In this document: positions 15,965-64,000 of the stretch, piece by piece | Layout of the letters: each line of letters begins with the position of its first letter | Position numbering within the stretch: the stretch's first letter is position 1 | Source: Spirochaetota bacterium | GTDB taxonomy: Bacteria > Spirochaetota > UBA4802 > UBA5550 | Length of the DNA: 64,000 nucleotides | Reading direction: 5' to 3' | Assembly: GCA_016933025.1 (NCBI GenBank) | Contig: JAFGBT010000004.1 | Span: forward strand, 1,598 to 65,597 | The notes under the pieces: model-generated | Databases searched by the model: none | Told to the model about the DNA's origin: nothing | What the model saw: the letters and a program-made list of their open reading frames with translations, nothing else | Position numbers and translations under genes: made by a program

Positions 15965-16036
15965 TCGCTTGAAAAATCGTGTAAAATTCATATTATAATT
16001 TCAGTACAGCAAAAAATGCAAATCGCCGGGGGTCTC

Positions 16037-17785: not shown

Positions 17786-17809
17786 GGCGGCCGGCCCCGG
17801 GGAACAACA

Positions 17810-19030: not shown

Positions 19031-19040
19031 AGAGGCGGAC

Positions 19041-19895
19041 GTGGAATACCGTTATCTGGAAGCGACATGCGCCGACGACGTCGGCATCATTACCATCCGG
19101 AGGCCTCCGGCCAACGCGTTGAGCTACGGCCTGGTTATGGAGTTGAAGGACCTTGTCACGAAAATCAGAACGGACGCCGGGATACGCAGCGTCATCTTTC
19201 GAAGCGGGGTCGATAAATTTTTTTCCTCCGGGGCGGACCTGACCGACCTGCCCCCCGATGTCATTGCAAAGCTGGCGGACATCCCCGCCGCCGGGGGGCT
19301 GAAGCAGCTTATTAAAAATGCGATTCCGTCCGTATCCTCGAGGATAGCCGAGATATTCAGGGAAGTGCATGAGGTGTTCGGCATGATTGAATCCATGCCC
19401 AAGCCGACAATCGCGGTCATTAACGGCCATGCCCTCGGAGGAGGACTTGAGCTTGCGATGGCGTGCGATTTCAGGTTCATGGGCCGCGGCTCCGGCACGG
19501 TGGGCATGCCGGAAATCACCCTCGGACTCATACCGCTCGGCGGGGGCACCCAGAGGCTTCCCCGCCTTGTCGGAAGGAACAGGGCCGTCGAGCTGCTCCT
19601 GAGCGGTTCTAAGATCGGGGCGGACGAGGCCCTTTCAATCGGACTGGCCACCAGGGTCTGCGACAAAGAGAAGATCGACGAAGAGGCGCTCGGCTACGCA
19701 AAGAAGCTGGCAAACGGCCCGACCGTCTCCATCGGCCTGATAAAATACTGCGTGAACAACGGCCTGAACGGACCACTGCGCGATGGATTGAAAATCGAAC
19801 GGGACTCTTTTCAGGACCTTCTCAAGACCGAGGATATGATCGAAGGCATTCTCTCTTTCGTGGAGAAGCGCGAACCGCATTTTATCGGCAAATAG
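19041..19895 (+). CDS. Enoyl-CoA hydratase/isomerase family protein
   Basis: FSSGADL, NGHALGGGLELAMACD, GMPEITLGLIPLGGGTQRLPRLVG; GTG start with GAGG RBS. Confidence 0.92.
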   Translation: MEYRYLEATCADDVGIITIRRPPANALSYGLVMELKDLVTKIRTDAGIRSVIFRSGVDKFFSSGADLTDLPPDVIAKLADIPAAGGLKQLIKNAIPSVSSRIAEIFREVHEVFGMIESMPKPTIAVINGHALGGGLELAMACDFRFMGRGSGTVGMPEITLGLIPLGGGTQRLPRLVGRNRAVELLLSGSKIGADEALSIGLATRVCDKEKIDEEALGYAKKLANGPTVSIGLIKYCVNNGLNGPLRDGLKIERDSFQDLLKTEDMIEGILSFVEKREPHFIGK

Positions 19896-19958
19896 CCGGA
19901 TCGGCATGTTATAGAGAATGGACTCAAAATCAAATTCATCGCACGGTGGGAAAATACG

Positions 19959-43549: not shown

Positions 43550-44197
43550 TCATGCTTTTCTGATAAAATATATCAGCAGAATTATGACCGGCACTGTCAA
43601 AGCAGCGAGAAGTGTATACTCCTCTTGAAATATTGAAGGCCGATAAATTACCGCTCCTGCCATTCCAGCCAGCGCCCCCCCGATATGGGCTTCATGACCG
43701 ATAATTGAACCTTTCCTGCCTATACCGTACAGCGAAATTGCCATGAAAAGGATAGCATAAACCCACGAGGGTAGAGCAATTGGCAAGGGAAAGACATATA
43801 TGCTCCCACCAGGCAGGAGGAATATCGACGCAAAAATAATCCCGCAGACTGCACCGGACGCGCCCACTGCCCGATATCCGGGCTCGTTTCGTTTGATTGC
43901 AAGGGCCGTGAGGTCGCCTGCAATGGCTGCACTAAAGTATATTATGGCAACCAGGCCAGGACCCAATCGCTGTTCCAATAGAATTCCGAAAGAATAAAGG
44001 CTTATCATGTTAAAAAGCAGGTGTGTCCAGTCTGCATGAAAAAACTGTGATGTCATCAGACGATAGAGATTCTTATCGCCCAGAATGCCTGTCACAGAAA
44101 ACAGGTATTTTTCCATAAGATCTTTCCGACCAAAACCAATAATAGACACAACAGCAGTAATGGCGATGATTCCCCATGTAAAAAAATTGAGGTTCAT
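43550..44197 (-). CDS. Rhomboid intramembrane serine protease
   Basis: FFHADWTHLLFNM, GASGAV (Ser), HEAHIGG (His). Confidence 0.93.
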   Translation of the reverse strand: MNLNFFTWGIIAITAVVSIIGFGRKDLMEKYLFSVTGILGDKNLYRLMTSQFFHADWTHLLFNMISLYSFGILLEQRLGPGLVAIIYFSAAIAGDLTALAIKRNEPGYRAVGASGAVCGIIFASIFLLPGGSIYVFPLPIALPSWVYAILFMAISLYGIGRKGSIIGHEAHIGGALAGMAGAVIYRPSIFQEEYTLLAALTVPVIILLIYFIRKA

Positions 44198-44198
44198 G

Positions 44199-45200
44199 TC
44201 ATACAGGCTTCGTACCGGTCATCAAATCATTCTCCATTCCCGTGGGGATTCTCCTGATATCCACACATCCCGCATTTTCCAGCCATTCCTTCATCTCATT
44301 CTCTGTATATGTATCGCCGCTTTTGGTATTCACCAGCATGTTCAGTGAGAAGAGAGCGCCTCTCAGAGGCGCGGTTCTATCCTCCTCCATAATATGGTCC
44401 TGAATGATGATTCTTCCCATGGGATTCAGCGACTCGAATGCCTTTTTCATTAGCGCCCGGTTCTCCTCGTATGAATTTATATGCACGATGGCGGACATGA
44501 AAATCAAATCATACCCGTAACCGAAATCGTCTTTATTGTAATCCCCTTCTTTTGTGCCGATACGGCTTGCCAGACCGCTTTCAGTAATATATCTACGCGT
44601 TAGATCAATTACGTTCGGCAAATCCAGAACAACAGCATGCAGATCCGGCTTTAATCGCGCGAAGGCCATTGAATAAACCCCCGAACCGCCCCCAATGTCG
44701 AGCAGTTTTGCAACACCGGTTATATCGATATGCGAAACAAGCATATCTGCAGTTTTTTTTGCCCTATGATGCATGGATGCAATAAAGCGCTCGAGCGAGG
44801 TCTCGTCATATTCTCTTGCGGTAACGGATCTTCCTTCCAGAACGGCATCCGTTAATGTCCCCCAACTTCGGTACATATTAAGCATATGGCCAATGCGCGC
44901 CAGGTAGTTCTCCGAGCCTTTAGCAAGGTAACGTAACGAAATATCAGTATTGAAAAAAAATTCCTCTTTCTTTACCATCAAACCCATCGCACACAACGCA
45001 TTAAGTAACCGTTCGGTTGACTTCGCATTCGCACCTGTTTTACGCGCAACATCCTCAGCAGATAGAGCAACCTTCCCAATGGAGGTAAATACATCCAACT
45101 CGAAGGCAGTCAGTATTATCCTGCTTTTTTGATAGCCGGCAGCCATTTCAATTATCTGTTCGGGGGTAGTTATCGCCTGTCCAAATGATTCATGTGCCAT
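44199..45200 (-). CDS. SAM-dependent O-methyltransferase (family 2, with dimerisation domain)
   Basis: N-terminal wHTH dimerisation domain; LLDIGGGSG; GDYNKD; SAIVH. Confidence 0.88.
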   Translation of the reverse strand: MAHESFGQAITTPEQIIEMAAGYQKSRIILTAFELDVFTSIGKVALSAEDVARKTGANAKSTERLLNALCAMGLMVKKEEFFFNTDISLRYLAKGSENYLARIGHMLNMYRSWGTLTDAVLEGRSVTAREYDETSLERFIASMHHRAKKTADMLVSHIDITGVAKLLDIGGGSGVYSMAFARLKPDLHAVVLDLPNVIDLTRRYITESGLASRIGTKEGDYNKDDFGYGYDLIFMSAIVHINSYEENRALMKKAFESLNPMGRIIIQDHIMEEDRTAPLRGALFSLNMLVNTKSGDTYTENEMKEWLENAGCVDIRRIPTGMENDLMTGTKPV

Positions 45201-45368
45201 TTTCTCCTCACATTAATGAATTTTTACACATTGACATTCATTATTTCTTATCAATAACTGTATTAATATTAATTATTACAATAAAATAATCGTTGTGATA
45301 AAAAAATTTATAATTTTAATAATTTCATTCGTATTACATTTATCAACAATAAAATTGGACAGATAAAT

Positions 45369-45815
45369 ATGAAGACAACACTTAATATCCACACTAAAAT
45401 TTTAGAACAAATTGCTTGTGCAGCGCAAATACGGGGTATTTCACGATCCGAAATAATAATACTACTAATTAAACATTATATGAACTATATTCCAAATCCA
45501 GGGTGTTTAGGCTCCCTTGTTCGCTATCAAAAAAAGAGCAAGCCAGTTAATTGGCACAAATTCCATATCAAATTACGTGTAGATGATTATGAATTTTTTC
45601 TTGATCTCAGAAAACTCCTTAAGATGTCAGTATCATTGATTCTCGAGCAGGCAGTTCAGAGATTTTTACCCAAACTATTGAAAATGAATACTATATATAA
45701 TCACCAAAGAAAAAATTATATGATTTCGAAGGAAATCACTAATGGGATAACAAGCTGGAAATTCACCTGGGGTTTCCCAATTCACATAGGAAAAATATTT
45801 GCACTTCGATGCTGA
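45369..45815 (+). CDS. Hypothetical RHH-like protein (resembles the spirochaete DUF1564-type family)
   Basis: RGISRSEII..L, VRYQ, W.KFHIKLRVDDYEFFLDLRKLLKMSVS; AT-rich. Confidence 0.45.
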   Translation: MKTTLNIHTKILEQIACAAQIRGISRSEIIILLIKHYMNYIPNPGCLGSLVRYQKKSKPVNWHKFHIKLRVDDYEFFLDLRKLLKMSVSLILEQAVQRFLPKLLKMNTIYNHQRKNYMISKEITNGITSWKFTWGFPIHIGKIFALRC

Positions 45816-46384
45816 ACAAAAATATTTATCCTATCCTCTGCATTGACGGACAATTTCATGCAGGTAGGCACGATAGCACCTGTTTGCCTGAGCTTCTGAT
45901 GCATGTTCCAGTATAAAATGGATTGTATCCGCATCTTCACGGTTGAAAATGATACGATCACATGCATCCATGATATGAATAATAGTATTTTTTTTTAACA
46001 TGGCGGCCAACTTCCGTCCTATCTATAAAAAGAATCGGTATGGTCGCCTATAAATATCAGCCAATTTATTCCCTATGGTAAAAATATAACCTCATTCAAT
46101 AACAGTGTCTTTTAAGCTTAAGATAGGAATTGACCATGCTGTCAATCACCATGAGATAATTCGGCACAACTATTGTATATAGACCTCTAATGATCATATG
46201 CATTAACACCCAAGAAACCCTAACCCTGATACCCATGCCATATATCATGGCCCATTAATTGATAGTTAATGTAAGACAGGCGATAACTATCCTCGCCAAC
46301 TAAATTGGAGGACATTCATAAGGATTATGATATGTTATTTACGCCGTGATAATAACTTTTCACTCTGGCTTTACCATGGGGGCT

Positions 46385-47032
46385 TCATTCCCAAAGGCAA
46401 ATTTTCCAGCCGTATTGTCGCGCAAAGCGTTCCAGTTTTCGATCCGGGTAGACACAGACCGGTGTTCCAACAACCTCCAAGACCGGGAGATCGGCTATCG
46501 AATCAGCATAATAATATGCCTCTTCAAGTGATAAGCCATGTTCAAAGCAATATTTCTTAGCGCGTTTCAGCTTTTCCTGACCATGGCAATAGGCTCCCTT
46601 CAGTCTGCCAGTAATTTTTCCATCGACAATCTCAAGCTCGGTGCAAATGACATCATCCATGTTAAGAACTCCCCTGATATGTTCACATATGGCGACAGAT
46701 GACGCGGATAGGATAACGGTGCGGACTCCATGTTCTCTGTAAAATTCAATTTCATCTCGAGCGCCATCCCGAATATATTTCTCCAGCTCTTTACCCCATT
46801 CGGCAGCAAGAGGCTCCATAACCTCGACAGGAAGCCCCCTGTACCAACCAGTCCATACGGCCACCGCCGCATCGGCACTCATCAGGCCGGCGCGGTAAAG
46901 AATTGTAATGATGACCGCCTGCAAGGACTGTAGGGAACCAATAATTCCACGTTCGCGTGAGCCGCGAAACATAACCTCGCCGCTTGAAATGCTAAGAATT
47001 GTATGATCAAGATCGAAAAATGCTACCTGCAT
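46385..47032 (-). CDS. HAD-IB family hydrolase
   Basis: FFDLDHT, ILSAS, GQEK, YADSIADLP. Confidence 0.9.
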   Translation of the reverse strand: MQVAFFDLDHTILSISSGEVMFRGSRERGIIGSLQSLQAVIITILYRAGLMSADAAVAVWTGWYRGLPVEVMEPLAAEWGKELEKYIRDGARDEIEFYREHGVRTVILSASSVAICEHIRGVLNMDDVICTELEIVDGKITGRLKGAYCHGQEKLKRAKKYCFEHGLSLEEAYYYADSIADLPVLEVVGTPVCVYPDRKLERFARQYGWKICLWE

Positions 47033-50555: not shown

Positions 50556-51254
50556 TTACCTGATGGTCCCGCCGCAGAACCGGATTACCCGCCATCGCTT
50601 TTCCCGGGCTCTCTGTTCCAGCAAAGGGTCGGGATTCACCGCAAAGGGAAAGCCAGCCAGATCGAGGAATGGCGCGTCATAGATGCTGTCGCCGAAGAAT
50701 GCGCAGCGCGACAGCGGCACGCCGGCCCGCTCGGCATAGGCGCTCCCGAGCGCGACCTTACCCTCTCCGAAGCAGTAAGGCCGGATGGCCCTTGTGAAAC
50801 GGCCGTCCTCGATCGCAAAGCGGTTCGCAATGATACCGTCCATCTGGAGGAAGCCGGCGAACGGCGCGGCGATGGCTTCATCCTGAGCGGTCAGGATCAG
50901 CGTACGACACCCCCGCTCCCGGAATCCCCCGACCAGGGCAACGGCCTCCCGGTATATGTGCGCGCGTCCTTTGTCTTCAAAAAATTCATTTGCCCGGCCG
51001 CGGAATTCGTCTGCCGAGAGGGTCCCGATCCTGAACCGCTGGTATTTCATATACTCGTCGATGTCCAGCCGACCGTTCCTGAAGTCGCGGTACATCTTGA
51101 AAAGCCACGCGCGCTCAGCCCATCCCTTCAGTTCATGGCTGGTTCGCCATGACGCCCAGAGCGAATCGGTATCCTCGTCGGTGAGGGTTTCGTCAAGGTC
51201 GAAAAAGGCAATGTCTGCGTCCGGGAGATTGTGCATCAGGTCCATAATACTCAT
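50556..51254 (-). CDS. HAD-IB family hydrolase (second paralogue)
   Basis: FFDLDET, ILTA, GEGK, FGDSIYDAP; start uncertain (51254, 51245 or 51236). Confidence 0.88.
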   Translation of the reverse strand: MSIMDLMHNLPDADIAFFDLDETLTDEDTDSLWASWRTSHELKGWAERAWLFKMYRDFRNGRLDIDEYMKYQRFRIGTLSADEFRGRANEFFEDKGRAHIYREAVALVGGFRERGCRTLILTAQDEAIAAPFAGFLQMDGIIANRFAIEDGRFTRAIRPYCFGEGKVALGSAYAERAGVPLSRCAFFGDSIYDAPFLDLAGFPFAVNPDPLLEQRAREKRWRVIRFCGGTIR

Positions 51255-51349
51255 ACCAGCATCCGGCGTTAATCCAGAGATGAGGGAAAGACACATCTGG
51301 TATAGAATATGTTATTATGCAAGAAATTTCTGTCAGTGGGATGAAAATA

Positions 51350-53449: not shown

Positions 53450-54694
53450 TTACTTCCGGCCGGCCTGCACCATCGGCGATTCCCGGAGCCGCGAGGTCAG
53501 GAACACATTGAATGCAGCCAGTACGATAAAAACGACCATAAATTCGACCATTCCTGCGACGTTCATACCGATCGCGAACAGAATGCCCGAGACCTGGCCG
53601 GCAAGCAGAATGACCCCCTGCGACAGCGATTCCGGCGCCGGGAAGCTCACCTCCGCCGCGTACTGGAATCCGATCGGCCCGGCGCCGCCCAGCAGGAAGA
53701 AGCCCATGATCGCTGCCGAGACGAGCATTATCCCGTAGCTATCCGCAAACGCAAGCCCGATGAGCCCCGGGATCATGAGCGCCATGCCCAGGCCAAGGAA
53801 GAATTTCCGCTTCCTGAACCGGTCCGATAGGGCCGGCTGGATGAGCGCACCGAGAATACCGGCTATGAACATCATGCCCATAATCATGCCCGTCTGCTCC
53901 GTGGCCAGCTTTTTTATCTCGCATATACGGTCGAAGACAATCGTCAGCGCGTTGAACATACCGAGCCCTATAAAGAAAAGCACGAGGGCGATCCGCATGT
54001 CCCGGTGTCGTAAGATGTGACTGAAGCCGTCGCGGGAGAGCAGGCGCTCCTCGGCGCCGTGCTGCGACGGCGGGGTCGCGGGCTTCTCGCGCATCAGGAT
54101 GAGGAAGACCGCGGCGACCACGGCGGAGATCACCCCCCAGGTCATCAGCATACCGGAGAGATCGTAGGACTCCCCGCTCTTCACCACCAGATAGGGCGTC
54201 ACTATGCTCACCACAATGAATCCCACGTACTGGGCGAGCGTCCCGATCCCGACAGCCGTTGCCCGCTCGTTGAGCGGGAACCAGTTTGCCGCGACCCGCG
54301 TCACAGCGTTCAATATGAATGGCTGGGCAACCCCCAGTCCCACCTGGCAGACCACCATCATAGGATAGCTCGCGGCGAACAGCCCTTTTGCAAGGCCGAA
54401 GACACCGGTCAACGCCGCCCCAATCCCGATACCAATCCGAATCCCATACCGGTCGATTATATACGAGGCCGGGATGCACACGATGATGAACAGGATCAGG
54501 AAGATCATGGCAAGCAGATCAATATACAGCCCTTCATTAATGCCAAAGCCGTACGCGGCCTGCGCCTCGCGCGCAATGGGAGCGAAGGTCAGCCACTGGA
54601 TCTCTATTATCACGGTAATCAAGAAGTAAGCCAGTAGAACTATCCATCGGTAACCATAAACCTGATAGGTATTCTGTTCAAGCTTCACATTCAT
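53450..54694 (-). CDS. MFS transporter
   Basis: 12 predicted TM; YIIDRYGIR and LSDRFRKRK loops; WFPLNERATA; GGAGG RBS. Confidence 0.92.
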   Translation of the reverse strand: MNVKLEQNTYQVYGYRWIVLLAYFLITVIIEIQWLTFAPIAREAQAAYGFGINEGLYIDLLAMIFLILFIIVCIPASYIIDRYGIRIGIGIGAALTGVFGLAKGLFAASYPMMVVCQVGLGVAQPFILNAVTRVAANWFPLNERATAVGIGTLAQYVGFIVVSIVTPYLVVKSGESYDLSGMLMTWGVISAVVAAVFLILMREKPATPPSQHGAEERLLSRDGFSHILRHRDMRIALVLFFIGLGMFNALTIVFDRICEIKKLATEQTGMIMGMMFIAGILGALIQPALSDRFRKRKFFLGLGMALMIPGLIGLAFADSYGIMLVSAAIMGFFLLGGAGPIGFQYAAEVSFPAPESLSQGVILLAGQVSGILFAIGMNVAGMVEFMVVFIVLAAFNVFLTSRLRESPMVQAGRK

Positions 54695-54858
54695 ACCTCC
54701 TCCCCCGGTCTTCAGTATGCTTTGCCGTACTATTTGGATTTTGTCATTAATAATTTTTCATCAATCCATGCCTCTCCCTCTGGGAGGCAGCAGCCTGTAC
54801 ATCCCTGCACGCTGCTGCATTCGCGACCTCCCGTCACTCAGTGGGTCCGGGATTGAGG

Positions 54859-56334
54859 TCAGTCTTTCTTTATTTCAATATGCTTGAATACCCGCTCGAA
54901 CCGGGCCAGGGCATCGTCTATCACATCGTCCGTATCCGCCATGCTGCAGTACAGCCGGCTCCCGGCCAGGGTTATGATGCCCTCCGCCATCAGGGCCGCG
55001 CCCATCTCTTCCATGACCTTCTTGCGCGCGCCCACTTCCTTGAAAATATTCGGGTTCTTGATGTCCATGAGCATGGCCGCACCGGTCTCCATGTGGCAGA
55101 TCGAGCCGTGGTTGAATGCCACAAACGGTAGCTTAAGCCGGTCAAACATGTCAGCCAGTCCTTTGGTGAGCCGGTCGCCGGCCGCGCCGGCCTTGAGGTG
55201 AGCTCCCGTCTCCTCGATGGCCTTGATGCAAAAGTAACCCGCAGCGCATGAGAGCGGGTTGGCCGAGAGGGTGCCTCCAACCATGGCACGCTTCCCGCCC
55301 GGGCCGCCGCCGAGCCCGGCGGCGTAACAGAGCATCACGTCCTTGCGGCCGCCGACGCCTCCGGCGCCGGGGTAACCGCCGGCCACGCACTTGCCGAATA
55401 CCGTGAGGTCAGGCTTCACGTTGAAGTAGCCCTGGGCCCCGCCGAGCCCCACGCGGAACCCGGTAACCACCTCGTCGAAAACCAGGAGCGTCCCGAACCG
55501 ATCACAGAGCTCGCGCACATTCTTATTGTAATCGGGGAGCACCGGGCGGGTGCCGCTCTCCGGTCCGAGCGGCTCCAGGAATACCGCCGCCGTCCCGCCG
55601 TCCTGCTCGTTCTCCTCCATCCGCTTTTGTAATGCTTCAAGGTCGTTCGGGAAGACCTCCTGAGTGAACTGGTAGCATCCCGCCGGTATCCCGTGGGCGT
55701 CAAGCGGACCCACGCCAGGGACCCGCATCCCGAACACGAACTGATCGCTCCAGCCATGGTAGGCCCCGCCGATCTTTATCACGTATTTCTTGCCGGTGAA
55801 GGTGCGCGCGGCACGAACCGCGGCCATGCACGCCTCGGTGCCGCTCATCAGCATGCGGAACATCTCCACGGAGGGCATGTGGCTGTGTATCAGTTCGGCC
55901 AACTTGAGCTCGTACTCGTGGAAGAGCCCGGTAACCGGACCGCTCTCTTTGATGACCTCGATTACCTTCTCCTGCACCGGCTTGTAATTGCTCCCGAGGA
56001 GCGTCGGCCCCCCTGCCTGGAGGAAATCGATGTACCGGTTGCCGTCCACGTCCCAGAGGTACGCTCCCTCAGCCTTGGTTATGGCGAGCGGGAACGGATA
56101 GTTGAATGCGAGGTTGTGCTGGACGCCGCCCGGGATCAGCTCCTTTGCGCGATTCGTCATCTCTTTGGATTTGGCGCATTTCGTATCAAAGTGATTCATG
56201 TACTCCTGCATCTTATCCCGCTTGATCTGATGAATCGGGAGCTCGTTGGCCAACCGGTACAGCCGTTTCAGCAAATCCTCGGTATCAGGCCAGTCCGATA
56301 TGGAATATGATTTCTTCGTGTCTGCTTTGTTCAT
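54859..56334 (-). CDS. Class III PLP aminotransferase, GSA-aminomutase-like subfamily
   Basis: LIPGGV, GAYLWDVDGNRYIDF, SGTEA, YHG, FDEVVTGFR, FGKC (PLP lysine); start placed at MNKAD (GGAG RBS). Confidence 0.9.
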   Translation of the reverse strand: MNKADTKKSYSISDWPDTEDLLKRLYRLANELPIHQIKRDKMQEYMNHFDTKCAKSKEMTNRAKELIPGGVQHNLAFNYPFPLAITKAEGAYLWDVDGNRYIDFLQAGGPTLLGSNYKPVQEKVIEVIKESGPVTGLFHEYELKLAELIHSHMPSVEMFRMLMSGTEACMAAVRAARTFTGKKYVIKIGGAYHGWSDQFVFGMRVPGVGPLDAHGIPAGCYQFTQEVFPNDLEALQKRMEENEQDGGTAAVFLEPLGPESGTRPVLPDYNKNVRELCDRFGTLLVFDEVVTGFRVGLGGAQGYFNVKPDLTVFGKCVAGGYPGAGGVGGRKDVMLCYAAGLGGGPGGKRAMVGGTLSANPLSCAAGYFCIKAIEETGAHLKAGAAGDRLTKGLADMFDRLKLPFVAFNHGSICHMETGAAMLMDIKNPNIFKEVGARKKVMEEMGAALMAEGIITLAGSRLYCSMADTDDVIDDALARFERVFKHIEIKKD

Positions 56335-56393
56335 GACAGTCTCCATTGTTTTATAAATATTATTTTGATCTATCCTCACAGATTGCTATTACT

Positions 56394-56471
56394 GCCCCCT
56401 AAATCCCCCGGAGGGGGACTTATTCAATCAACTATTTTCCACCGGAGCCCCCCTCTGGGGGGATGGGGGGC
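56394..56471. repeat. MITE/REP-like element with G/C-run terminal inverted repeats (copy 2)
   Basis: GCCCCCTAAATCCCCCGGAGGGGGACTT ... AGCCCCCCTCTGGGGGGATGGGGGGC; matches 23261-23352. Confidence 0.7.
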
Positions 56472-56496
56472 TTGAAGGGACAAGTGGGCCATAAAA

Positions 56497-57189
56497 TCAT
56501 ACCTTAACCTTGAGCTCCTCCCTTCTCTTAATCTCCGCGTCCTGCTTCATGACAACGATTTTACCCATGAGCTCCTGCATGTTCTGCGGCAGGAGGTTTA
56601 TCTCCTTTCCGGTCGAGAGCGCGTAATAGTAGACCCGCGCGCACTTTTCCAGCAGCTCGGTATTTCTCTTCGCCTTAGAGATATCAGAGCCGAGCGACAG
56701 CGCCCCGTGATTCTGCAAAATATAGCAGTTACCCCGGTTCCCGAGCTTGGTGACGACATTATCCATGAGCTGCGGACTCCCCGACAGACCGTAGGGCACA
56801 ACCTCCACGACCGGTCCAATAGTGCTGGCGACCTCGTCGAACAGGCACGGGATCGGCTCGTTGATCAGCGCGAAGACGCTGGCGAAGATCTGGTGCGTGT
56901 GCACCACCGCGCCGACGTCTTTGCGGTTCCGGTAGACCGACACGTGCATGCCCGTCTCCACCGAAGGCTTGATGCCGTTGTCTTCGATCGGCTTCAGGTC
57001 AAAATCGACAACGCATATCTCATCGACGGTGAGTGTCCGGTACTCCCTCTGGGACGGCGTGACCGCTATCACGTCCTCCCCCTCCACCAGCATTGAAACG
57101 TTGCCACCGAGCCCCTGGATATATCCCTCATGCACAAGGTCCATGGTGCAGTCAAACACCTGTTTCTTATACGAGTCGTATTTTCCCAT
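56497..57189 (-). CDS. Class II (Zn) aldolase/adducin family, FucA/Ald2-like
   Basis: GGNVS, VTPS, PSVE (catalytic Glu), HTH and NHG (Zn ligands). Confidence 0.92.
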   Translation of the reverse strand: MGKYDSYKKQVFDCTMDLVHEGYIQGLGGNVSMLVEGEDVIAVTPSQREYRTLTVDEICVVDFDLKPIEDNGIKPSVETGMHVSVYRNRKDVGAVVHTHQIFASVFALINEPIPCLFDEVASTIGPVVEVVPYGLSGSPQLMDNVVTKLGNRGNCYILQNHGALSLGSDISKAKRNTELLEKCARVYYYALSTGKEINLLPQNMQELMGKIVVMKQDAEIKRREELKVKV

Positions 57190-57199
57190 AGCATCCTCC

Positions 57200-58801
57200 C
57201 TAACTGTTCATCACGGTGAACAGCTTTTTATTTCTATCATATAGTTTCTTGAAAATCTCGAAATGCCTGTCGTACATGCCCCGGTTTCGTTTTTGAGGTT
57301 CGTAGGTCTTCTTAACCGGGATAAGGCTCTTCGCCTCCGCGAACGATTTGAAAAGTCCAAGCCCCACGGCGCATACCACGGTGGCGCCGATAGTTCCGAC
57401 GTTCTGCGGATCAGCGACGGTCTCTATGACCCGGCCGGTGATATCGGCCATGATCTGGCAGCCGATCTCGGATTTCGCCCCGCCACCCACGAAGCGAAGC
57501 CGCTCGCGCCTCGGTATCTTCAGCTCCATCGCCTCAAGCATCCACCGCTTGTGATATGCCATTCCCTCCATGACGGCGCGGATCATCTGTCGCTTGCCGG
57601 TGTCCAACCCCAGATTGAAGAACATGCCGCGCGCGTGCGGGTCTTCCCGCGGGGACCGGTTCCCGTGGAGCCAGGGGGTGAAAATCACTCCGCCGGAGCC
57701 CGCCGCCGTTTTGCTTATGACGGCGTTCAGGAAATCGAATAGGCTGTTATATTCATCGGTCTTCTCAACGACATGCTTAGCCTTCAGGTACATGCCTATC
57801 TCGTCCAGGGCAAGGTGGTCGCGCACCCACTTGAGACAGGCGCCGGAGGTCTCCTGCTCGGCCGAGTAGTTGTAGAGGCCCGGTATCGCTCCGAGGATTG
57901 AGGCAATAAAATTGCCAATATCCACCATGCGCTTGTCAACGTTCGAAAGCACCCAGCCGGACGTGCCCACATACACGTGCGTGTCATACAGGTCGAGGCA
58001 GCCTGCGCCGATGGCCGTGAGCGACGTGTCGCCGCCGCCGCCGAATACCGGTATCCCCTCGACGAGCCCCATCTGCCGGGCCGGACCGGGGAGAAGGCGC
58101 CCCACTACGTCGGTGGATTTGACCACCGGCGGCAGAAGTTCCATGTTCACGTCAAATGTATTGCAGAGTCCCCGGTGCCATCCGAGTTTTCCCGGGCGTG
58201 TATCGTACAGGAAGGTGAGGTGCGCCGAATCCTGCGTCATGCCGTACTCGCCGGTGCAGCGAAGGATCAGGTAGTCCTTTACATCGAGCCACTTGTACGC
58301 CCGCTTGAAAAGTCCGGGCTCGTTGTCCTTCACCCAGTGATACTTCCACAAGGGGTCCTTGGGGGTCGCGGCAAGCCCGCCGGTGATCATAAGCGACCTC
58401 AGCGTGGTGACTGCATTCCATTTGCCATTTATTTTCACCAGGCCCCGATTCAGGTACCGGTCAATCTGCGCCGTGGAGCGGCCGTCCATGTAGTTCATCG
58501 GGTTCCTGACTGCCTTTCCCGATTCATTGACGAACACCGAGCCCTGCAGCTGGGCGCAAAACGTCATGGCCGCTATATCGGCCGGCCTGATCTTCGAACG
58601 GGCCATGATTGTTTTTGTCGCCGAGCATACGGCCGCCCACCATTCATCGGCCTTCTGTTCGACACCGCCGTCAGGCGTCGTGTACAGGGGATATTCAACC
58701 AGATACGAATCGACCAGCTCTATCCGCCTGCCGATCCGATAGATACAGGACTTGTTCCCCGTCGTTCCGACATCATGAGTTACTACATATGCTTGTGCCA
58801 T
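57200..58801 (-). CDS. FGGY-family carbohydrate kinase
   Basis: HDVGTTGNK, GGGDT, YVGTSGW, PWLHGNRSP, GGGAKS..CQIMADITG; 10 bp from the aldolase; start placed at MAQAYV. Confidence 0.92.
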   Translation of the reverse strand: MAQAYVVTHDVGTTGNKSCIYRIGRRIELVDSYLVEYPLYTTPDGGVEQKADEWWAAVCSATKTIMARSKIRPADIAAMTFCAQLQGSVFVNESGKAVRNPMNYMDGRSTAQIDRYLNRGLVKINGKWNAVTTLRSLMITGGLAATPKDPLWKYHWVKDNEPGLFKRAYKWLDVKDYLILRCTGEYGMTQDSAHLTFLYDTRPGKLGWHRGLCNTFDVNMELLPPVVKSTDVVGRLLPGPARQMGLVEGIPVFGGGGDTSLTAIGAGCLDLYDTHVYVGTSGWVLSNVDKRMVDIGNFIASILGAIPGLYNYSAEQETSGACLKWVRDHLALDEIGMYLKAKHVVEKTDEYNSLFDFLNAVISKTAAGSGGVIFTPWLHGNRSPREDPHARGMFFNLGLDTGKRQMIRAVMEGMAYHKRWMLEAMELKIPRRERLRFVGGGAKSEIGCQIMADITGRVIETVADPQNVGTIGATVVCAVGLGLFKSFAEAKSLIPVKKTYEPQKRNRGMYDRHFEIFKKLYDRNKKLFTVMNS

Positions 58802-58932
58802 GGAATACCTGCTGTGGTTTGTGAGATGTGGCAATTGTTACCCGCGCAGCCGCGGGGAACAAGGCGTTATACCTGGATGGTTTCCGGACATCTCATCCGC
58901 ACGATTAATAGATAATTACGAAAACCCGCCGG

Positions 58933-58964
58933 GTCATATCAAAAACTGATAAATCAGAAATTGA
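58933..58964 (-). promoter_or_regulatory. Conserved 32-bp motif upstream of the FGGY kinase operon (candidate AraC-family operator)
   Basis: GTCATATCAAAAACTGATAAATCAGAAATTGA; 27/32 identical to 63201-63232, same orientation. Confidence 0.7.
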
Positions 58965-59051
58965 GAAAAAGATAATATCATCCCGGGAATCAGAATACAG
59001 AGCCCATTGACTCGCGGTGAAAATGTTCAAAAACCGTAATACATACAGGTT

Positions 59052-60719
59052 TTAATGCTTTTTCTCTCGAAATTGTGTCGGCGTAACCTTCATGACCTTC
59101 ATGAATGCCCTGTTGAATGTGGGGAGGCTTTCAAAACCGACGGAAAATGCGATATCGATAATGTTAACGCCCGTCTCCGCAATTTTACGCGCGGCCTCCC
59201 TGACCCTGAGCTCATTGATGTACTCGCTGATTTTTTTGTTCGTGTAAATCTTGAAAAACCTCCCAAACGAATCAGGATGCATGTTGATCGATGCGGCAAG
59301 CCCTTCCCGGGATATATCCGATGTATAATTCTGCTGTATAAAAGCTATCGCCTTCTTGATTTTATCCTCGATGTTTTGCGTGATGGAATGCTGACGCGCG
59401 ACGGCAGTCTGATCTATCATTCTCTGGTAAAGGTAGGCGTTTTCAATCGCGGACGCGGCCTGCGCAATAAAGGCCGTGATCAGCCGGATGTCGGTCTCCC
59501 TGAACTGGCCCGCCTTACGATTCCGCTGGAGGCAGCAGACTCCAATGGTCTCCTCCCGTAGATTGATGGGCACGAAGAGGGAGTCGAGCGCGCCGATCCC
59601 GGCTTTTCCCGCAGCATCATGGCCTTCAACGGTCCGGTGACGACGCTCCTCCACGGTTCTTGCGGCCGTCTCTGCCACCCAGAACGGAACGTCTTCATTA
59701 TTGGAACGGACCGCCGTTTCAAGGCCGCCGCCGTCGCCGACCATGAAAAGGTAGCCGCCCGACGCTGCTGATATCTCCATCGCCTTTTCCAGCGACCTGT
59801 TCAGGAGCTTATCGATGTTAAGAACGATGCTTATGTCCTGGCTGAGTGAGCTTATCGATGTGCCGGCATCGCGTTTGCGATTTTTTCCCTCGTCCGCTCC
59901 GGCGCCCGCCTCGCCGGAAATTCCTGCATAGAGATCTCGGGTGATCTCGCTGAAAAAAAGCTCCATGGTTCGGTCGTTCACCTTCTCCTCAAGCTGCTGC
60001 GTCAGCTCCTCAACCTCGCGATTCAGCGTGACAAAACGGCTCTGCAGCACATGCGCCATCGAAAGGATAATGAACAGGTACGTGTACTCGAGCAGGTAGA
60101 TGAAGGGATAGACCCCCGCGCCGACGAGTACGTCGTTCAGGGCGGCCGCAAAAAAGAGTATCATCGACACCAGGATCGGCCTTGCGTTGGGCTGCTCCTC
60201 GCTCCGGTAATTCCGGACCAGGACGTAAAAAAGAAAGGCCGCCGCCAGTATCATCGAAGCGTACTGTATTGAATAAATGATTCCGGGGTCCACCTCGTTG
60301 TATACTATGACACCTCCCCACAGGTTGATGGTTTTTACGAACGGCCGAGACAGGGAAAGAGTGAGCACGCCCCGTATGAAAACCCCCAGAAGGAAAAATG
60401 CGGAAAGCCATGCAGTGATAATAATGAAGGGTATCCGCGACCTGAAGCGGGTAAAATGATAGATGAACCAGGATACCGATATGGTAAAGAGGGCAAGAAC
60501 GGCAAACTGAAGCCGCTGCCAGAACATGCCCTTTTCAATCGTCGATGCGTTGTAGAGGCCCGCGCAGAATATGTCGTAGAGGGCGATAGCGAAGCAGGTG
60601 ATGGCGAAGGCCAAATTCTCGACCTCTGACCTCCGGCGAGCGAACATGATCAGATAGTAGAACCCCACATAAAAGGAGACGGCGGCCATAAGTGCCGGCG
60701 GTAATGATACCCAGCTCAT
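59052..60719 (-). CDS. Membrane-integral AraC-family regulator (7TM HisKA_7TM-like + coiled coil + GAF + AraC HTH)
   Basis: About 7 hydrophobic helices; GAF LFVPINLREETIGVCCL...FRETDIRLI.AF..QAA.AIENA; AraC DISREGLAASINMHPDSFGRFFK and IIDIAFSVGFESLPTFNRAF; start placed at MSWVSL. Confidence 0.88.
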   Translation of the reverse strand: MSWVSLPPALMAAVSFYVGFYYLIMFARRRSEVENLAFAITCFAIALYDIFCAGLYNASTIEKGMFWQRLQFAVLALFTISVSWFIYHFTRFRSRIPFIIITAWLSAFFLLGVFIRGVLTLSLSRPFVKTINLWGGVIVYNEVDPGIIYSIQYASMILAAAFLFYVLVRNYRSEEQPNARPILVSMILFFAAALNDVLVGAGVYPFIYLLEYTYLFIILSMAHVLQSRFVTLNREVEELTQQLEEKVNDRTMELFFSEITRDLYAGISGEAGAGADEGKNRKRDAGTSISSLSQDISIVLNIDKLLNRSLEKAMEISAASGGYLFMVGDGGGLETAVRSNNEDVPFWVAETAARTVEERRHRTVEGHDAAGKAGIGALDSLFVPINLREETIGVCCLQRNRKAGQFRETDIRLITAFIAQAASAIENAYLYQRMIDQTAVARQHSITQNIEDKIKKAIAFIQQNYTSDISREGLAASINMHPDSFGRFFKIYTNKKISEYINELRVREAARKIAETGVNIIDIAFSVGFESLPTFNRAFMKVMKVTPTQFREKKH

Positions 60720-60830
60720 CGAAAACCTCTGGCAGAGATTGTTGCCACGCGCAAGCGGGCCGACCGGCATGCGCGATAATCATACATTATACTATCTCGA
60801 TAAAAATTAAAGATAATTTTTTTTGCCTGG

Positions 60831-60859
60831 AAAAAAAAGCCGCGTCGAAAACGCGGCTT
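60831..60859 (-). terminator. Intrinsic terminator after the ceramidase gene
   Basis: Minus strand AAGCCGCG-ttttcga-CGCGGC followed by T8. Confidence 0.75.
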
Positions 60860-60914
60860 CAGGCACAATTTATATGGGGTTTTTAATTACAATTATCTTT
60901 CTTTCATCCAATAC

Positions 60915-63098
60915 CTATTTTACTTTAAACGATTTGGTCACTCCCTCGTAGGGGCTTATTTTACCGGTCCAGCCGGACTTCCAGTTCCCCTTGTGGCGAA
61001 TACGGTACGTGCCGGGCTGAGCATTCAGGGTATTCCAGGTAATGGTTATCTTGGAATACGCGATGCTGTTACGCTCCCATCGGTATGTGGTGTCCGGATC
61101 CCAGTCATAGGTCGCCGGCACATATTTCCCGTCGACCAGCTTCTCAACAACGAGAAAGCTGTCCTGTGTCCTGAGATTGTTATTCGGATGGGCGCCCCAA
61201 AATTGCACGGAAACAAGGCTCCCTTTCGCGTAGCTCGATGACGGCTGCGTAATAACGCTGCCGAAGCTCTTGCCGAGCGGCTTGTCGTCGAACCACACCT
61301 TCGCGGTGAAATCAACAGTCTGGCCGGTGACATCCTCGGGGGTCGGCCCTGCCGGGACCCCGGTTCCGTTAACAATTGCCCTGCAGAGCTTTGTGTATTC
61401 CTGCCGGAACGCCGTCAGCTGATTCGGGCCGAACTGCGTTGCGGCTCCCTCGTACCACTGCTTCGCGTATTCCTCCCTGGTGGCCATGTACGAGGCATAG
61501 GTGTTCGAGAGGGCGGCGACGACCGCGCAATCCACGCCGTCGGCGGCCAGCTCGTTGATGAGCGTCTTCTTGATTCGCCGGCCCGACATTGTGGTGACTT
61601 CGGTGGGGACTGCCGCGATTGCCATATTCCCGATTTTCAGAACCTGGAACGGAATGATCTGCGGCGTCATGGTAGGGCCATTAATGTTAAGATGTGCGAT
61701 ACCGGTCGGAATAAGCACCGGTTTTTCCGCCTGGCACTCCTTGTAGGCCGCGTCGTTGGTCGCGGGCCACGCGAAGGCGAAGACGCCGCCGAGGAACGTG
61801 CTCAGAAACGCGCTGCCGGCGTTATCGCTCCAGTCAAGGCTGTCGACCGTCGTCCCGTTCGGGAAGAGCGGCGACGGGCTCGGGTTGTCATATGGGCTCC
61901 CGGCCGAGAACGAGGCGCCCATGCCGGCCGCACAGGTGGTACACCCGGCTTCCTCGACATAGAGCGTTCTCATGTCGACCCACTCGTGGCGCGAATCCAC
62001 TGAGCCCGAGAGTTCACGCGCGGCGCCCTCATACAGCTCTTTTGCCCTGGTATATTGCTTGAGGACCGCGTTCTCGAGGCTTTTATTGTTCGCGAACGTT
62101 ACATCGGGCGGCGCCTGGCCGAACCCGATGTTCGGCGTGACGTCGCCGGCGCTCGACTGGGCGAACGCAGCCACGAATGTACGGGCCGCAAAATAATTTG
62201 TCCCCTTGTCCTTCTCGAAAAGAAACGACGCCCAGCCTTTGTTGTCGCCGCTGATCAGCCTGTTCTCTGGGCCGATACTGTCAGGATGGACCGCATACCA
62301 GTTAAGCATGCCGATCTCCTCTCCCTCGAGGGTGACGAACTTGAGGAGTGTCATGGTTTTATCCGTATTGCTGTCGTACAGCGCGCGTTCGGCAGCCGGG
62401 TTGTTCTCATAGGCCTCAACGGCGCGGTTGCCGCCACAGCCGTCAATCGTCCCCTCGCTCACGAGGATCTTGCCGGGGGCGACATTATTGTGGGCCCTCA
62501 CGATCGATTGATAGATTCCGTCCACGATGGCGTTGAAATTCTGCTTCACGAAGCCGTTGATGGTAGCATCATACAGAAAGTAGCCGGAATACCCTCCCGG
62601 GCCGTTGTGCGTGTGCGTCGCCGACAGGAGGATATTTTTTTCATTATAGAATCTGGAGAGGTCCGCATTCTGAGCGATTTTTTCCGAGACCTTCACCTTG
62701 ACCATCTGGAACAGCATGCCCAGATCGGCGCTTACGAACACGATCCGCCTGATTCCGTCGCCGACAACGAAGGCCCGCGACCTGAGACGAATATGTATGC
62801 CCGCGGTTTTTTGATCCGACACGGCAAATCCCATCATGCCAAGCTCGCCGGCCGGGCCGGTGATATCGTAGATCCCGGTTCCTATCAGGTAGACGCTCCC
62901 ACCCGTTGAGGTCGGATTCGTGGGGAGTGATATTACGCTGGCTTCATCGTTATAGGGATTGTTATCGCCACTATCCCCTATTCCGAGCAGCGGCAGCATC
63001 CCGTTACCGGAATCCTGATCGCAGCCAGGAACAGTGAAAAGGAAAACACACACTAACAGTAAAAGGATCTTGCTATGGATGATAGAATGATTGCTCAT
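60915..63098 (-). CDS. Neutral/alkaline ceramidase, lipoprotein
   Basis: ATHTHNGPGG, NRAVEAY, WYAVHPDS, DNKG, GDVTPN, PTEVTTMSGRR, YA.Y.ATREEY..Q.YEG..T.FG; C-terminal Ig-like GTYRIRHKG; signal peptide with VPGC lipobox. Confidence 0.92.
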   Translation of the reverse strand: MSNHSIIHSKILLLLVCVFLFTVPGCDQDSGNGMLPLLGIGDSGDNNPYNDEASVISLPTNPTSTGGSVYLIGTGIYDITGPAGELGMMGFAVSDQKTAGIHIRLRSRAFVVGDGIRRIVFVSADLGMLFQMVKVKVSEKIAQNADLSRFYNEKNILLSATHTHNGPGGYSGYFLYDATINGFVKQNFNAIVDGIYQSIVRAHNNVAPGKILVSEGTIDGCGGNRAVEAYENNPAAERALYDSNTDKTMTLLKFVTLEGEEIGMLNWYAVHPDSIGPENRLISGDNKGWASFLFEKDKGTNYFAARTFVAAFAQSSAGDVTPNIGFGQAPPDVTFANNKSLENAVLKQYTRAKELYEGAARELSGSVDSRHEWVDMRTLYVEEAGCTTCAAGMGASFSAGSPYDNPSPSPLFPNGTTVDSLDWSDNAGSAFLSTFLGGVFAFAWPATNDAAYKECQAEKPVLIPTGIAHLNINGPTMTPQIIPFQVLKIGNMAIAAVPTEVTTMSGRRIKKTLINELAADGVDCAVVAALSNTYASYMATREEYAKQWYEGAATQFGPNQLTAFRQEYTKLCRAIVNGTGVPAGPTPEDVTGQTVDFTAKVWFDDKPLGKSFGSVITQPSSSYAKGSLVSVQFWGAHPNNNLRTQDSFLVVEKLVDGKYVPATYDWDPDTTYRWERNSIAYSKITITWNTLNAQPGTYRIRHKGNWKSGWTGKISPYEGVTKSFKVK

Positions 63099-63200: not shown

Positions 63201-63256
63201 GTCATATCAAAATCTGTTCAATCAGTATTTGACAAGCCACGAAAACTGATTAATCA
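63201..63256 (-). promoter_or_regulatory. Conserved motif upstream of the ceramidase, plus an extra half-copy
   Basis: GTCATATCAAAATCTGTTCAATCAGTATTTGA (63201-63232); AAAACTGATTAATCA (63242-63256) matches 58942-58956 at 14/15. Confidence 0.7.
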
Positions 63257-63431
63257 CATTTTAGCCGGTGGTGTCAGAGTAACAGATCATATAATATAAA
63301 TGTTGACGTATTGTAATTATAGGAGTATTGAAAAATCAGATGAAATATTTATACAAATAATTTATTTTGTACAAATAAATAACTTGAAGAAAAAAAACAC
63401 CAACCTGTGGCGGGCCAGGATTGCGGACGCA

Positions 63432-64000
63432 ATGAATATGAGCCGCGCCGATCTCTTTATGAAGTTCTGCCGTGAAATGATGGATAACTATCGCCTCAAA
63501 GGGGCGGCACTGGCAGAGAAAAGAGGCAAGTCATACACAGTATGCTCCACAATCAATCTATTTGATTCTAACACCGACCTTGCATTCACTTATTCCAAAC
63601 CGGATTCCATTTCCTTTTCAAAATCAGAATACGATTCCTGCGCGAAAACCTGTCGTTTTATACCGGCTACGGACAGTTCATTAATACTCATCATCTCCAT
63701 TGATAAAAGAAGAAAAATTGACGAACGTGAAATCACCCTTTCAATCGATTTTCTTTCATATATATCTGATTTTCACCGGAGACAGGCCGATTTTCTCGTC
63801 AGGTATAAAAATTATCTCTCCATATTCATGAAGTCGCCGAACCTGACCGCAATCCTCGACCGGTTCGGCAACGTTCTTGAATGGAACGAAATAGCCGGTG
63901 AGATGTATGGATGGGACCTGAAAGACGGTCCCATAAGCTATGCGGATTTCGTTCATGACAGCGACATACCGCGCATCAGGGCCCTCTTCACCGGATTGTA
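63432..64000 (+). CDS. PAS-domain signalling protein, 5' part (runs off the window; absent from the ORF track)
   Basis: Open frame translated by hand from ATG 63432 (or TTG 63384) to the edge with no stop; YLSIFMKSPNLTAILDRFGNVLEWNEIAGEMYGW...FVHDSD PAS signature. Confidence 0.75.
   Translation, partial: MNMSRADLFMKFCREMMDNYRLKGAALAEKRGKSYTVCSTINLFDSNTDLAFTYSKPDSISFSKSEYDSCAKTCRFIPATDSSLILIISIDKRRKIDEREITLSIDFLSYISDFHRRQADFLVRYKNYLSIFMKSPNLTAILDRFGNVLEWNEIAGEMYGWDLKDGPISYADFVHDSDIPRIRALFTGL

Follow-up and report, generated by a model that had tools for sequence, protein, structure and literature searches.

A six-gene cluster near one end of a 64-kb stretch of Spirochaetota DNA from a sediment metagenome (the whole stretch is called the window here) is a credible candidate, judging from its sequence, for a route of bacterial sphingolipid-backbone breakdown. 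The six genes, all on the minus strand between 53450 and 63098, encode a ceramidase, a seven-transmembrane (7TM)-GAF-AraC regulator, an FGGY-family kinase, a class II aldolase-family protein, a class III aminotransferase, and a major facilitator superfamily (MFS) transporter. On balance, we favor the view that they make up a regulon for dismantling sphingolipid backbones, that is, long-chain amino alcohols. A first-pass annotation of this DNA had proposed such a system, and its six co-oriented genes lie where it placed them and have the Pfam content that it claimed. Its overall interpretation is partly supported: the ceramidase link and the co-regulation appear well supported by comparative genomics, but some of its family assignments were too specific. 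What would be new is a variant that combines a ceramidase regulon with a ketose-1-phosphate cleavage pathway, both of known kinds, and which has a realistic chance of being a general lipid pathway. We assigned domain content with Pfam and subfamilies with NCBIfam models that have curated cut-offs; none of the cluster's enzymes reached a curated equivalog cut-off. The features of the region are as follows.

53450..54694, minus strand: MFS transporter (PF07690, MFS_1)
54859..56379, minus strand: class III (GSAM-like) aminotransferase (PF00202, Aminotran_3)
56497..57189, minus strand: class II aldolase/adducin-family enzyme (PF00596, Aldolase_II) of a distinct "PALFDE" subfamily
57200..58834, minus strand: FGGY-family kinase, XylB-like (FGGY_N and FGGY_C), with the ATG at about 58801 as its probable true start
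58933-58964, minus strand: operator and -35 box of the kinase-operon promoter, TCAATTTCTGATTTATCAGTTTTTGATATGAC
59052..60770, minus strand: membrane regulator of 572 aa (by Pfam, HisKA_7TM of the 7TMR-DISM type, GAF, and HTH_18/AraC)
60836..60860, minus strand: intrinsic terminator 3′ of the ceramidase gene (11-bp stem with 6 GC pairs, then a T run)
60915..63098, minus strand: neutral/alkaline ceramidase of 727 aa (PF04734 and PF17048), its own transcription unit
63201-63232, minus strand: operator and -35 box of the ceramidase promoter, TCAAATACTGATTGAACAGATTTTGATATGAC
63242-63256: a second, half-related palindrome in the ceramidase promoter, TGATTAATCA

Because the strong terminator at 60836-60860 ends the ceramidase unit, we rejected a single six-gene operon and divided the region into three transcription units: the ceramidase, the regulator, and the kinase-aldolase-aminotransferase-MFS operon (hereafter the module). 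The ceramidase nevertheless appears functionally tied to the module, because the promoters of both carry a conserved operator and -35 element. The two copies, TCAATTTCTGATTTATCAGTTTTTGATATGAC and TCAAATACTGATTGAACAGATTTTGATATGAC, are identical at 27 of 32 positions, and the 25-nucleotide operator core occurs exactly twice in the 64 kb, with 0 occurrences expected from 100 shuffles; the motif that the first-pass annotation had reported for these two promoters is exact and is found nowhere else in the window. The 5′ part of the operator forms a CTGAT-N-ATCAG palindrome; the 3′ end supplies the -35 box (TTGATA), and a plausible -10 box follows 18 nucleotides on (TTGATA-18-TATGTT in the ceramidase promoter). 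A palindrome abutting a -35 box is the layout one would look for in an activator site, and the 7TM-GAF-AraC protein is the likely activator of both promoters.

Four other loci (L092, L093, L112, and L125; L numbers designate related loci) keep the operator at the ceramidase promoter as well as at the kinase promoter, with at most 2 substitutions to a degenerate consensus, and the short contigs L094 and L103 keep it 5′ of the ceramidase. The background was 14 matches at up to 4 substitutions in 3.5 Mb of unrelated loci. The ceramidases of the operator-carrying loci are 64-79% identical, and the operator has nevertheless been kept. An exact 16-nucleotide core of the operator had no match in the loci then gathered, and a fuzzy search was required to recover it. 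The 7TM-GAF-AraC gene lies 5′ of the module in L092, L093, L112, and L125, as well as in the spirochaete loci L005, L006, and L022, where it is the likely module regulator; elsewhere a TetR protein takes this role. A weaker operator (TCAATxTCTGATTG…TTGAxGAGAC) stands 5′ of the kinase in L005 and L006, which have the AraC gene and no ceramidase, and the operator is missing from L088 and L089, both without the AraC gene. These patterns argue well for a single regulator of both the ceramidase and kinase units, for which the adjacent 7TM-GAF-AraC protein is the simplest candidate, and for recruitment of the ceramidase into the module's regulon; the pairing of this particular regulator with the operator is itself inferred. 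In L092 (14045-15376, minus strand) and L093, the AraC gene is separated from the kinase promoter by a gene for a SpoIIE-type PP2C phosphatase, which is not found in the window.

The close relative L089 bears on how this arrangement may have arisen. Its aminotransferase is 87% identical to that of the window and its downstream synteny is the same (MFS, methyl-accepting chemotaxis protein, HAD, SpoU), but it has neither the ceramidase nor the AraC gene, and a PAS/HATPase_c_2 gene directly abuts the kinase. The 5′ part of the same sensor gene, cut by the window end, is found at 63384-64000 on the plus strand, divergent from the ceramidase, and the gene also flanks the cluster in L092, L093, L103, and L112. 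Since PAS/HATPase_c_2 abuts the kinase in L089, the ceramidase and AraC genes look as if they were inserted exactly at the operon promoter.

The ceramidase covers both of its Pfam families in full length (PF04734, 1-509 of 509, E 6e-150; PF17048, 1-169 of 169) and scored 437 bits against P. aeruginosa CerN (PDB 2ZWS). Alignment with 2ZWS matched the metal and catalytic blocks of CerN (ATHTHxGPGG, VH, PxE, and NxYASY), the residues concerned being those of the HTH block, the second His, the Glu, and the Tyr of YASY. The protein has an N-terminal signal and a probable lipobox (…FTVPGC). With 396 bits against a cut-off of 1200 for the NCBIfam model ceramidase_neut (NF041649), it is, on this score, a member of the family and not a curated equivalog.

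The link between ceramidase and module recurs in other genomes and in different forms. A metagenome scan with the ceramidase gave 30 loci, to which look-ups of distant ceramidases added L122-L124, L126, and L125, and the module was present in 8 of the 12 independent ceramidase loci having about 10 kb of flank. We distinguished three architectures. Type A has the window order of ceramidase, AraC, FGGY kinase, aldolase, aminotransferase, and MFS (L092, L093, L112, and L125; partial in L094 and L103), with ceramidase identity to the window down to 64%. In type B (L096, which equals L113; L098, which equals L097; L107; and the partial loci L095, L108, and L120), an operon running from MFS through TetR, FGGY kinase, aminotransferase, and a RuBisCO-like protein (RLP) to a gene for a 357-aa protein is divergent from a DUF2147 gene followed by two ceramidase genes. 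Type C, seen in the high-G+C locus L109, has ceramidase, aldolase, aminotransferase, and FGGY kinase in that order. Because one type B ceramidase is 76% identical to that of the window, but its aminotransferase is only 48% and its kinase only 33% identical, near-identical ceramidases adjoin non-orthologous versions of the module. Furthermore, the ceramidase-linked aminotransferases fall into three separate clades of the aminotransferase tree. The 357-aa protein that ends the type B operon after the RLP (L107:1636-2709, and at the start of L096, L098, and L113) has no Pfam match and is 77-78% identical among these loci.

We also approached the module from the aminotransferase. A one-genome-per-species scan found 586 relatives, and the best 80 (56-66% identical) were taken as anchored loci; these come from Chloroflexota, Actinomycetes, Pseudomonas, Xanthomonas, Dyella, Leptospira, Clostridia, Christensenellaceae, Faecalibacterium, Hydrogenedentota, and Thorarchaeota. 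When all open reading frames in 88 loci were clustered, the aminotransferase was accompanied by an FGGY kinase in 57 loci and a class II aldolase-family protein in 45 (often as two copies), as well as by MFS (22), TetR (17, plus 9 more Chloroflexota loci with a separate TetR cluster), aldehyde dehydrogenase (10), and RLP (7). A minimal, self-contained version in Chloroflexota consists of TetR, aldolase, aminotransferase, kinase, and MFS. A Pfam census of 132 non-core aminotransferase neighbors revealed no further recurrent family, partly owing to de-duplication by cluster.

The enzymes of the module are recognizable by family and distinct in detail. The aminotransferase has its pyridoxal phosphate (PLP) Lys (FGK, Lys330) and Asp302 (DEVVTGFR) where GSAM (PDB 4E77) has them, and both are invariant in 28 homologs; its N terminus carries a conserved extension of about 65 aa, and the motif QHNLAFN[YH] is invariant. 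Its family is tightly conserved, with 65-89% identity among the 120 best matches (Spirochaetota, Syntrophales, Clostridia, Desulfobacterales). We rejected its identification as HemL, since its scores are below the cut-offs (TIGR00713, 280 bits against 527; NF000818, 305 against 398), its neighborhood is different, and a conserved Arg is missing: the Arg of the GSAM SPVR motif, which presumably binds the substrate carboxylate, falls opposite a gap in the alignment. We likewise rejected a specific relationship to FumI, on which the first-pass annotation had drawn, as the sequence scored 239 bits against GSAM and 101 bits against FumI.

The kinase motifs DVGTTG (DxGTTG), GGGD (with the catalytic Asp), GTSG, and GGGA match those of E. 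coli XylB (PDB 2ITM). In the aldolase-family protein, the three Zn-binding His residues (H92, H94, and H155), Glu73, Asn29, and Ser71 are retained, and the retention of the Zn site and of phosphate-binding Asn29 and Ser71 is consistent with a phosphorylated substrate supplied by the kinase. Its best PDB match is 6BTD (98 bits), deposited as fuculose phosphate aldolase, which we take to be the 5-deoxyribulose-1-phosphate aldolase DrdA. Some loci have two aldolase-family genes flanking the aminotransferase gene, and one copy then has neither the Zn ligands nor Glu73 and retains LFDE(Q/M)A (L061:11436-12065, L062:11379-12065, L067:11382-12065, L056:11495-12160, L076:13839-14468, and L083:13196-13825); in Pseudomonas and Acidobacteria loci, the Zn-bearing copy is without the Asp motif. 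These pairs suggest a heteromer in which the Zn-bearing and Zn-less copies split an inter-subunit active site. Finally, the closest solved relatives of the MFS transporter are FLVCR2 (124 bits) and FLVCR1 (98 bits), compared to 31 bits for the D-galactonate transporter. The FLVCR likeness would fit an amino-alcohol head group, yet argues equally for a small substrate.

Since the ceramidase is linked to the module, a sphingoid base is the obvious amine substrate. We infer this substrate and every reaction that follows from what can be seen directly in these loci, namely gene content, residues, the conserved operator, and the repeated ceramidase linkage. The exported lipoprotein ceramidase would free a sphingoid base from ceramide outside the cell, and the FLVCR-like MFS transporter would import it. 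The class III aminotransferase would turn the C2 amine into a ketone, saving the nitrogen, and the FGGY kinase would phosphorylate the C1 hydroxyl, these two steps coming in one order or the other. The aldolase-family enzyme would then cut the C3-C4 bond of the resulting 5-alkyl-5-deoxy-ketose-1-phosphate, yielding dihydroxyacetone phosphate (DHAP) and a fatty aldehyde, which would be pentadecanal if the base were C18 phytosphingosine. The 7TM-GAF-AraC protein would sense the lipid, or its effect on the membrane, and activate both promoters through the shared operator. This exact sequence of transamination, phosphorylation, and retro-aldol cleavage is a tentative proposal, one that we hold with less confidence than the regulon as a whole.

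The chemistry of the proposal follows from known compounds. Transamination would make of D-ribo-phytosphingosine a 5-alkyl-5-deoxy-D-ribulose, which shares the 3R,4R configuration of D-ribulose, and FucA, DrdA, and Ald2 accept and cleave 5-substituted D-ribulose-1-phosphates of this configuration; the stereochemical argument for phytosphingosine made in the first-pass annotation is correct by established chemistry. C-C cleavage is the most economical reading, because the minimal Chloroflexota version has an aldolase, an epimerase alone leads nowhere, and aldehyde-oxidizing enzymes recur. However, the strict 4-hydroxy specificity through a DHAP-forming aldolase that had been predicted cannot be the whole story, because there are variants in which an RLP replaces the aldolase. 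RLP sister modules, with or without a HAD phosphatase, would probably process the same ketose-1-phosphate differently, perhaps from bases without the 4-hydroxyl. An RLP is used, instead of or besides the aldolase, at 7 aminotransferase-side loci and all type B loci (for example L107:2776-4119, L096:710-2053, L001:8652-9962, L036, and L063); Haloimpatiens likewise has an RLP-type module.

The genes around the module offer hints that it handles a hydrophobic amine yielding an aldehyde. DUF2147, reported to have a lipocalin fold (bioRxiv 10.1101/2025.07.29.667474), is directly 5′ of the ceramidase in type B (L107:9308-9856), and DUF2147 together with a TorF/Gcw_chp porin adjoins the module in Pseudomonas, Xanthomonas, and a conjugative Burkholderia ambifaria plasmid (L062:6300-7643; L127:2327-3665). 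The plasmid operon reads FGGY kinase, aldolase, aminotransferase, (a second aldolase-family gene), short-chain dehydrogenase/reductase (SDR), and aldehyde dehydrogenase, and the Pseudomonas loci add a flavin-dependent (FMO-type) monooxygenase, an SDR, and an MFS-SDR fusion. We considered that the Pseudomonas porin might be SphA, and rejected this: SphA is a COG4313 channel (PMC4493636), and Gcw_chp/TorF is a different family. Aldehyde ferredoxin oxidoreductase (AFOR) is found at L002 (duplicate L003) and L005, and an MMPL-type gene lies beside the module in L088. A small membrane protein of the GtrA family, known for lipid-linked sugar translocases, is encoded between aldolase and aminotransferase in Lachnospiraceae/Clostridia operons without MFS (L128:11551-11973; L075:3594-4049; L073).

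Several results weigh against the sphingolipid interpretation, or against parts of it. A ceramidase was found within 10 kb at none of the 80 aminotransferase-anchored genome loci, and at none of the 88 clustered loci except the window; the kinase-aldolase-aminotransferase trio is far more widespread than ceramidases are. Conversely, ceramidases without the module occur in Archangium minus, Oligoflexus, Leptospira kobayashii, and one further metagenome-assembled genome (MAG). In the aldolase-family protein, the catalytic Tyr113 of FucA, also present in 6BTD and in S. pneumoniae FucA, is replaced by Asp, which lies within the conserved PALFDE in 40 of 57 aligned sequences and is the residue type of the AraD epimerase. 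The best NCBIfam model for this protein is the epimerase subfamily NF005123 (134.5 bits against a cut-off of 251), and the FucA models gave 97-118 bits, all under their cut-offs. The annotation as an aldolase of FucA/Ald2/DrdA type thus stands for the fold, the Zn His residues, Glu73, and phosphate-binding Asn29 and Ser71, but not for Tyr113 or for the subfamily, which is separate; similarly, the claim of intact catalytic motifs in all four enzymes stands for the ceramidase, aminotransferase, and kinase and only in part for the aldolase. The kinase is XylB-like and not, as had been assumed, a FucK-type ketose C1 kinase (XylB, 262 bits with a cut-off of 380; FucK, 88; RhaB, 35; all under cut-off), and to our knowledge no FGGY kinase acts on a lipid. 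FLVCR1 and FLVCR2 carry the small polar amino alcohols choline and ethanolamine. The RLP-only variants and the recurrent HAD phosphatases are unexplained by a simple DHAP-yielding aldolase route. The window has no aldehyde dehydrogenase, as the first-pass annotation noted, and no AFOR homolog. Lastly, the sole RNA run of the source study contains none of this sequence.

We considered that the module might instead catabolize an amino alcohol or amino-polyol that is small and soluble (a 2-amino-2-deoxy-alditol, for example, or a compound resembling ethanolamine or serinol), with the ceramidase linked to the module loosely or for some other reason. The aminotransferase would make a ketose, the kinase would phosphorylate it, and the aldolase or RLP would cleave it. 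The choline/ethanolamine transporters nearest to the MFS protein fit this possibility, as do a kinase most like xylulokinase, gluconokinase, and autoinducer-2 kinase and a module that is widespread without ceramidases; moreover, all the substrates that we know of for characterized FGGY kinases, class II aldolases, and RLPs are small. However, a soluble substrate leaves unexplained an operator that is common to ceramidase and module and kept in five genomes, three independent ceramidase-module architectures, and the DUF2147 lipocalin, porin, GtrA, MMPL, and FMO neighbors, and we know of no abundant natural soluble 2-amino-1,3,4-triol. We regard this alternative as unlikely.

A second alternative keeps the sphingoid base as substrate and changes the purpose and the chemistry: the system would mainly detoxify sphingoid bases, which are antimicrobial, by chemistry other than DHAP-aldolase cleavage. 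For example, the aldolase-family protein would act as an epimerase or dehydratase, and an RLP and a HAD phosphatase would then lead, by the logic of MtnB/MtnW/MtnX, to a non-toxic product. In favor of this alternative, sphingoid bases have toxic effects, and their detoxification by Pseudomonas has been described (PMC11893366). The AraD-like Asp that replaces Tyr113 would suit such an enzyme, the module RLPs are most similar to 2,3-diketo-5-methylthiopentyl-1-phosphate (DK-MTP-1-P) enolase (243 bits), a HAD phosphatase gene follows the RLP gene in L036 (8668-9300) and L063 and is found inside or next to the L006 and L004 operons, and a Syntrophales locus carries both aldolase and RLP. In contrast, the window and most loci have the aldolase without an RLP, and an epimerase by itself would lead to no product that could be used; the aldehyde dehydrogenase or AFOR that recurs beside the module fits the release of an aldehyde. 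Furthermore, the acireductone steps of methionine salvage need O2, and many carriers of the module are anaerobes. We find detoxification of this kind improbable as the main function.

Finally, it is very improbable that the ceramidase adjoins by coincidence or through a shared mobile promoter and that the operon is a variant DHAP shunt for 5-deoxyribose or methylthioribose, or a sugar pathway, even though the aldolase best matches 6BTD, the ceramidase is a separate transcription unit, and the close relative L089 has no ceramidase, because the six-gene cluster has no isomerase, nucleosidase, or MtnK-type kinase, the aminotransferase would have no role in a DHAP shunt, the linkage recurs in three architectures with divergent modules, and the operator is kept at both promoters over substantial divergence.

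If the sphingolipid interpretation is correct for the window, the module might extend well beyond it, as a general and previously unrecognized pathway of sphingoid-base catabolism from Spirochaetota to Thorarchaeota, including new RuBisCO-superfamily chemistry that the RLP variant would carry out on a lipid ketose-1-phosphate from bases that are not 4-hydroxylated; we see this extension as possible but less likely than not. The module is carried by Spirochaetota, Chloroflexota, Actinomycetes, Pseudomonas, Xanthomonas, Burkholderia, rumen and gut Clostridia, Leptospira, and Thorarchaeota. Plant, fungal, animal, and Bacteroidota membranes are rich in sphingolipids, whose free bases act as antimicrobials. 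In sediments, soils, rumen, and gut, such a pathway would close a gap in how lipid carbon and nitrogen are cycled, as a widespread route in the cytoplasm by which nitrogen is recovered and central metabolism is supplied with DHAP and a fatty aldehyde. Thousands of genes labeled "hemL", "xylulokinase", or "fucA/araD" would be re-annotated, and FGGY kinases, class II aldolases, and RuBisCO-like proteins would gain their first lipid substrates. The presence of the module in Pseudomonas, Burkholderia, and Butyrivibrio isolates would provide culturable organisms for tests; carriers of this kind are Pseudomonas salomonii, P. cerasi, Burkholderia ambifaria CF3, Ornatilinea apprima, and Butyrivibrio fibrisolvens D1.

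Other genes near ceramidases or modules deserve mention. Around two of the ceramidases without a module, a HlyIII/PAQR gene (L122:1847-2518, in Archangium minus, about 7.5 kb away; L126:9104-9760, in the MAG, directly upstream) and a PSCyt3 and HXXSHH gene pair are found, and Archangium adds an Exo_endo_phos gene and an FMO; these surroundings may represent a different sphingolipid-related neighborhood. A Peptidase_M28/M20-like gene is divergent from the aminotransferase in L083 (8444-9718), L085, and L086, with its cluster also represented in L077, and its product might act as a deacylase in the ceramidase's stead. In L127, an "amidase" gene lies about 6 kb from the module.

Elsewhere, the window resembles an ordinary spirochaete chromosome and holds flagellar, NifS/NifU, MurA-like, and chemotaxis genes. 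Consecutive genes at 15878-21143 (plus strand), about 33 kb from the ceramidase, encode an AMP-binding acyl-CoA synthetase (635 aa), an acyl-CoA dehydrogenase (406 aa), and a family III CoA-transferase (394 aa), and could be a sink for the fatty acid that the ceramidase releases. Two paralogous PF12710 HAD hydrolases (46385-47032 and 50556-51296, minus strand) are 32-35% identical to the HAD protein encoded inside the L006 operon or beside the L004 operon, and one of them is two genes downstream of the MFS gene, as in L089. G+C drops to 0.39 at 44001-46000, compared to about 0.55 elsewhere; this stretch overlaps an O-methyltransferase gene (44199-45200), and a rhomboid gene adjoins at 43550-44197.

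In a full-text search, we found no published aminotransferase-FGGY kinase-aldolase route of this kind and no link of one to a ceramidase; only work on SphR/SphBCD surfaced. Within the literature searched, the first-pass annotation was right to call the system undescribed. The nearest in function is the SphR/CerN/SphA/SphBCD system of P. aeruginosa, in which a ceramidase of the same family is co-regulated with genes acting on the base and the regulator has an AraC-family helix-turn-helix (PMC3900636, PMC5150637, PMC11893366). The enzymes here are a cytoplasmic aminotransferase, kinase, and aldolase, whereas those of SphBCD are periplasmic redox proteins; domains of the SphB-type cytochrome c, the SphC-type flavin mononucleotide oxidoreductase, and the SphD-type PLP aldolase are found in none of the six cluster genes, and the regulator here is a 7TM-GAF membrane protein, compared to the soluble AraC protein SphR. 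SphBCD is the only such system that has been studied; PMC11893366 acknowledges that the bacterial fate of sphingoid bases is otherwise unknown and leaves the product of SphBC unidentified.

In logic, the nearest system is the DHAP shunt (DrdK/DrdI/DrdA; MtnK/MtnA/Ald2), which also passes through a 5-substituted D-ribulose-1-phosphate that a class II aldolase splits into DHAP and an aldehyde. There the ketose arises by isomerization of an aldose-1-phosphate, and here it would arise by transamination of an amino-triol; an MtnA/DrdI-type isomerase was found nowhere in the window cluster, the only place where we looked for one. In addition, the kinase here is of the FGGY family and not of the MtnK/DrdK family, the aldolase is without the conserved Tyr, and the proposed substituent is a C14 alkyl chain. 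For the first two steps, the closest system is FumD/FumI of Sphingopyxis, in which hydrolysis releases an aminopolyol resembling sphinganine, whose C2 amine is then removed by a class III aminotransferase. The aminotransferase here has only a distant relationship to FumI, a ceramidase stands in place of the carboxylesterase FumD, and we know of no kinase or aldolase step that follows FumI.

Two further systems share single features. Like the eukaryotic, and rarely bacterial, pair of sphingosine kinase and sphingosine-1-phosphate (S1P) lyase, the proposed route would phosphorylate C1 and then cleave a C-C bond to release a fatty aldehyde. However, the kinase here is of a different family, and S1P lyase uses PLP to cut C2-C3, yielding phosphoethanolamine, in contrast to the proposed cut at C3-C4 after deamination, which would yield DHAP; an S1P lyase was absent, as the first-pass annotation had it, from the cluster genes and the 20 other large window open reading frames to which our check was limited. 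The MtnB/MtnW/MtnX steps of methionine salvage resemble the sister modules, which combine an aldolase-family protein, a DK-MTP-1-P-enolase-like RLP, and a HAD phosphatase. The window, however, has no RLP, the class III aminotransferase would act at the entry to the pathway and not at its exit, and many carriers are anaerobes. Thus, the enzyme set of this cluster is matched by none of the closest systems, whether SphR/CerN/SphBCD in function, the DHAP shunt in logic, or FumD/FumI in the first two steps.

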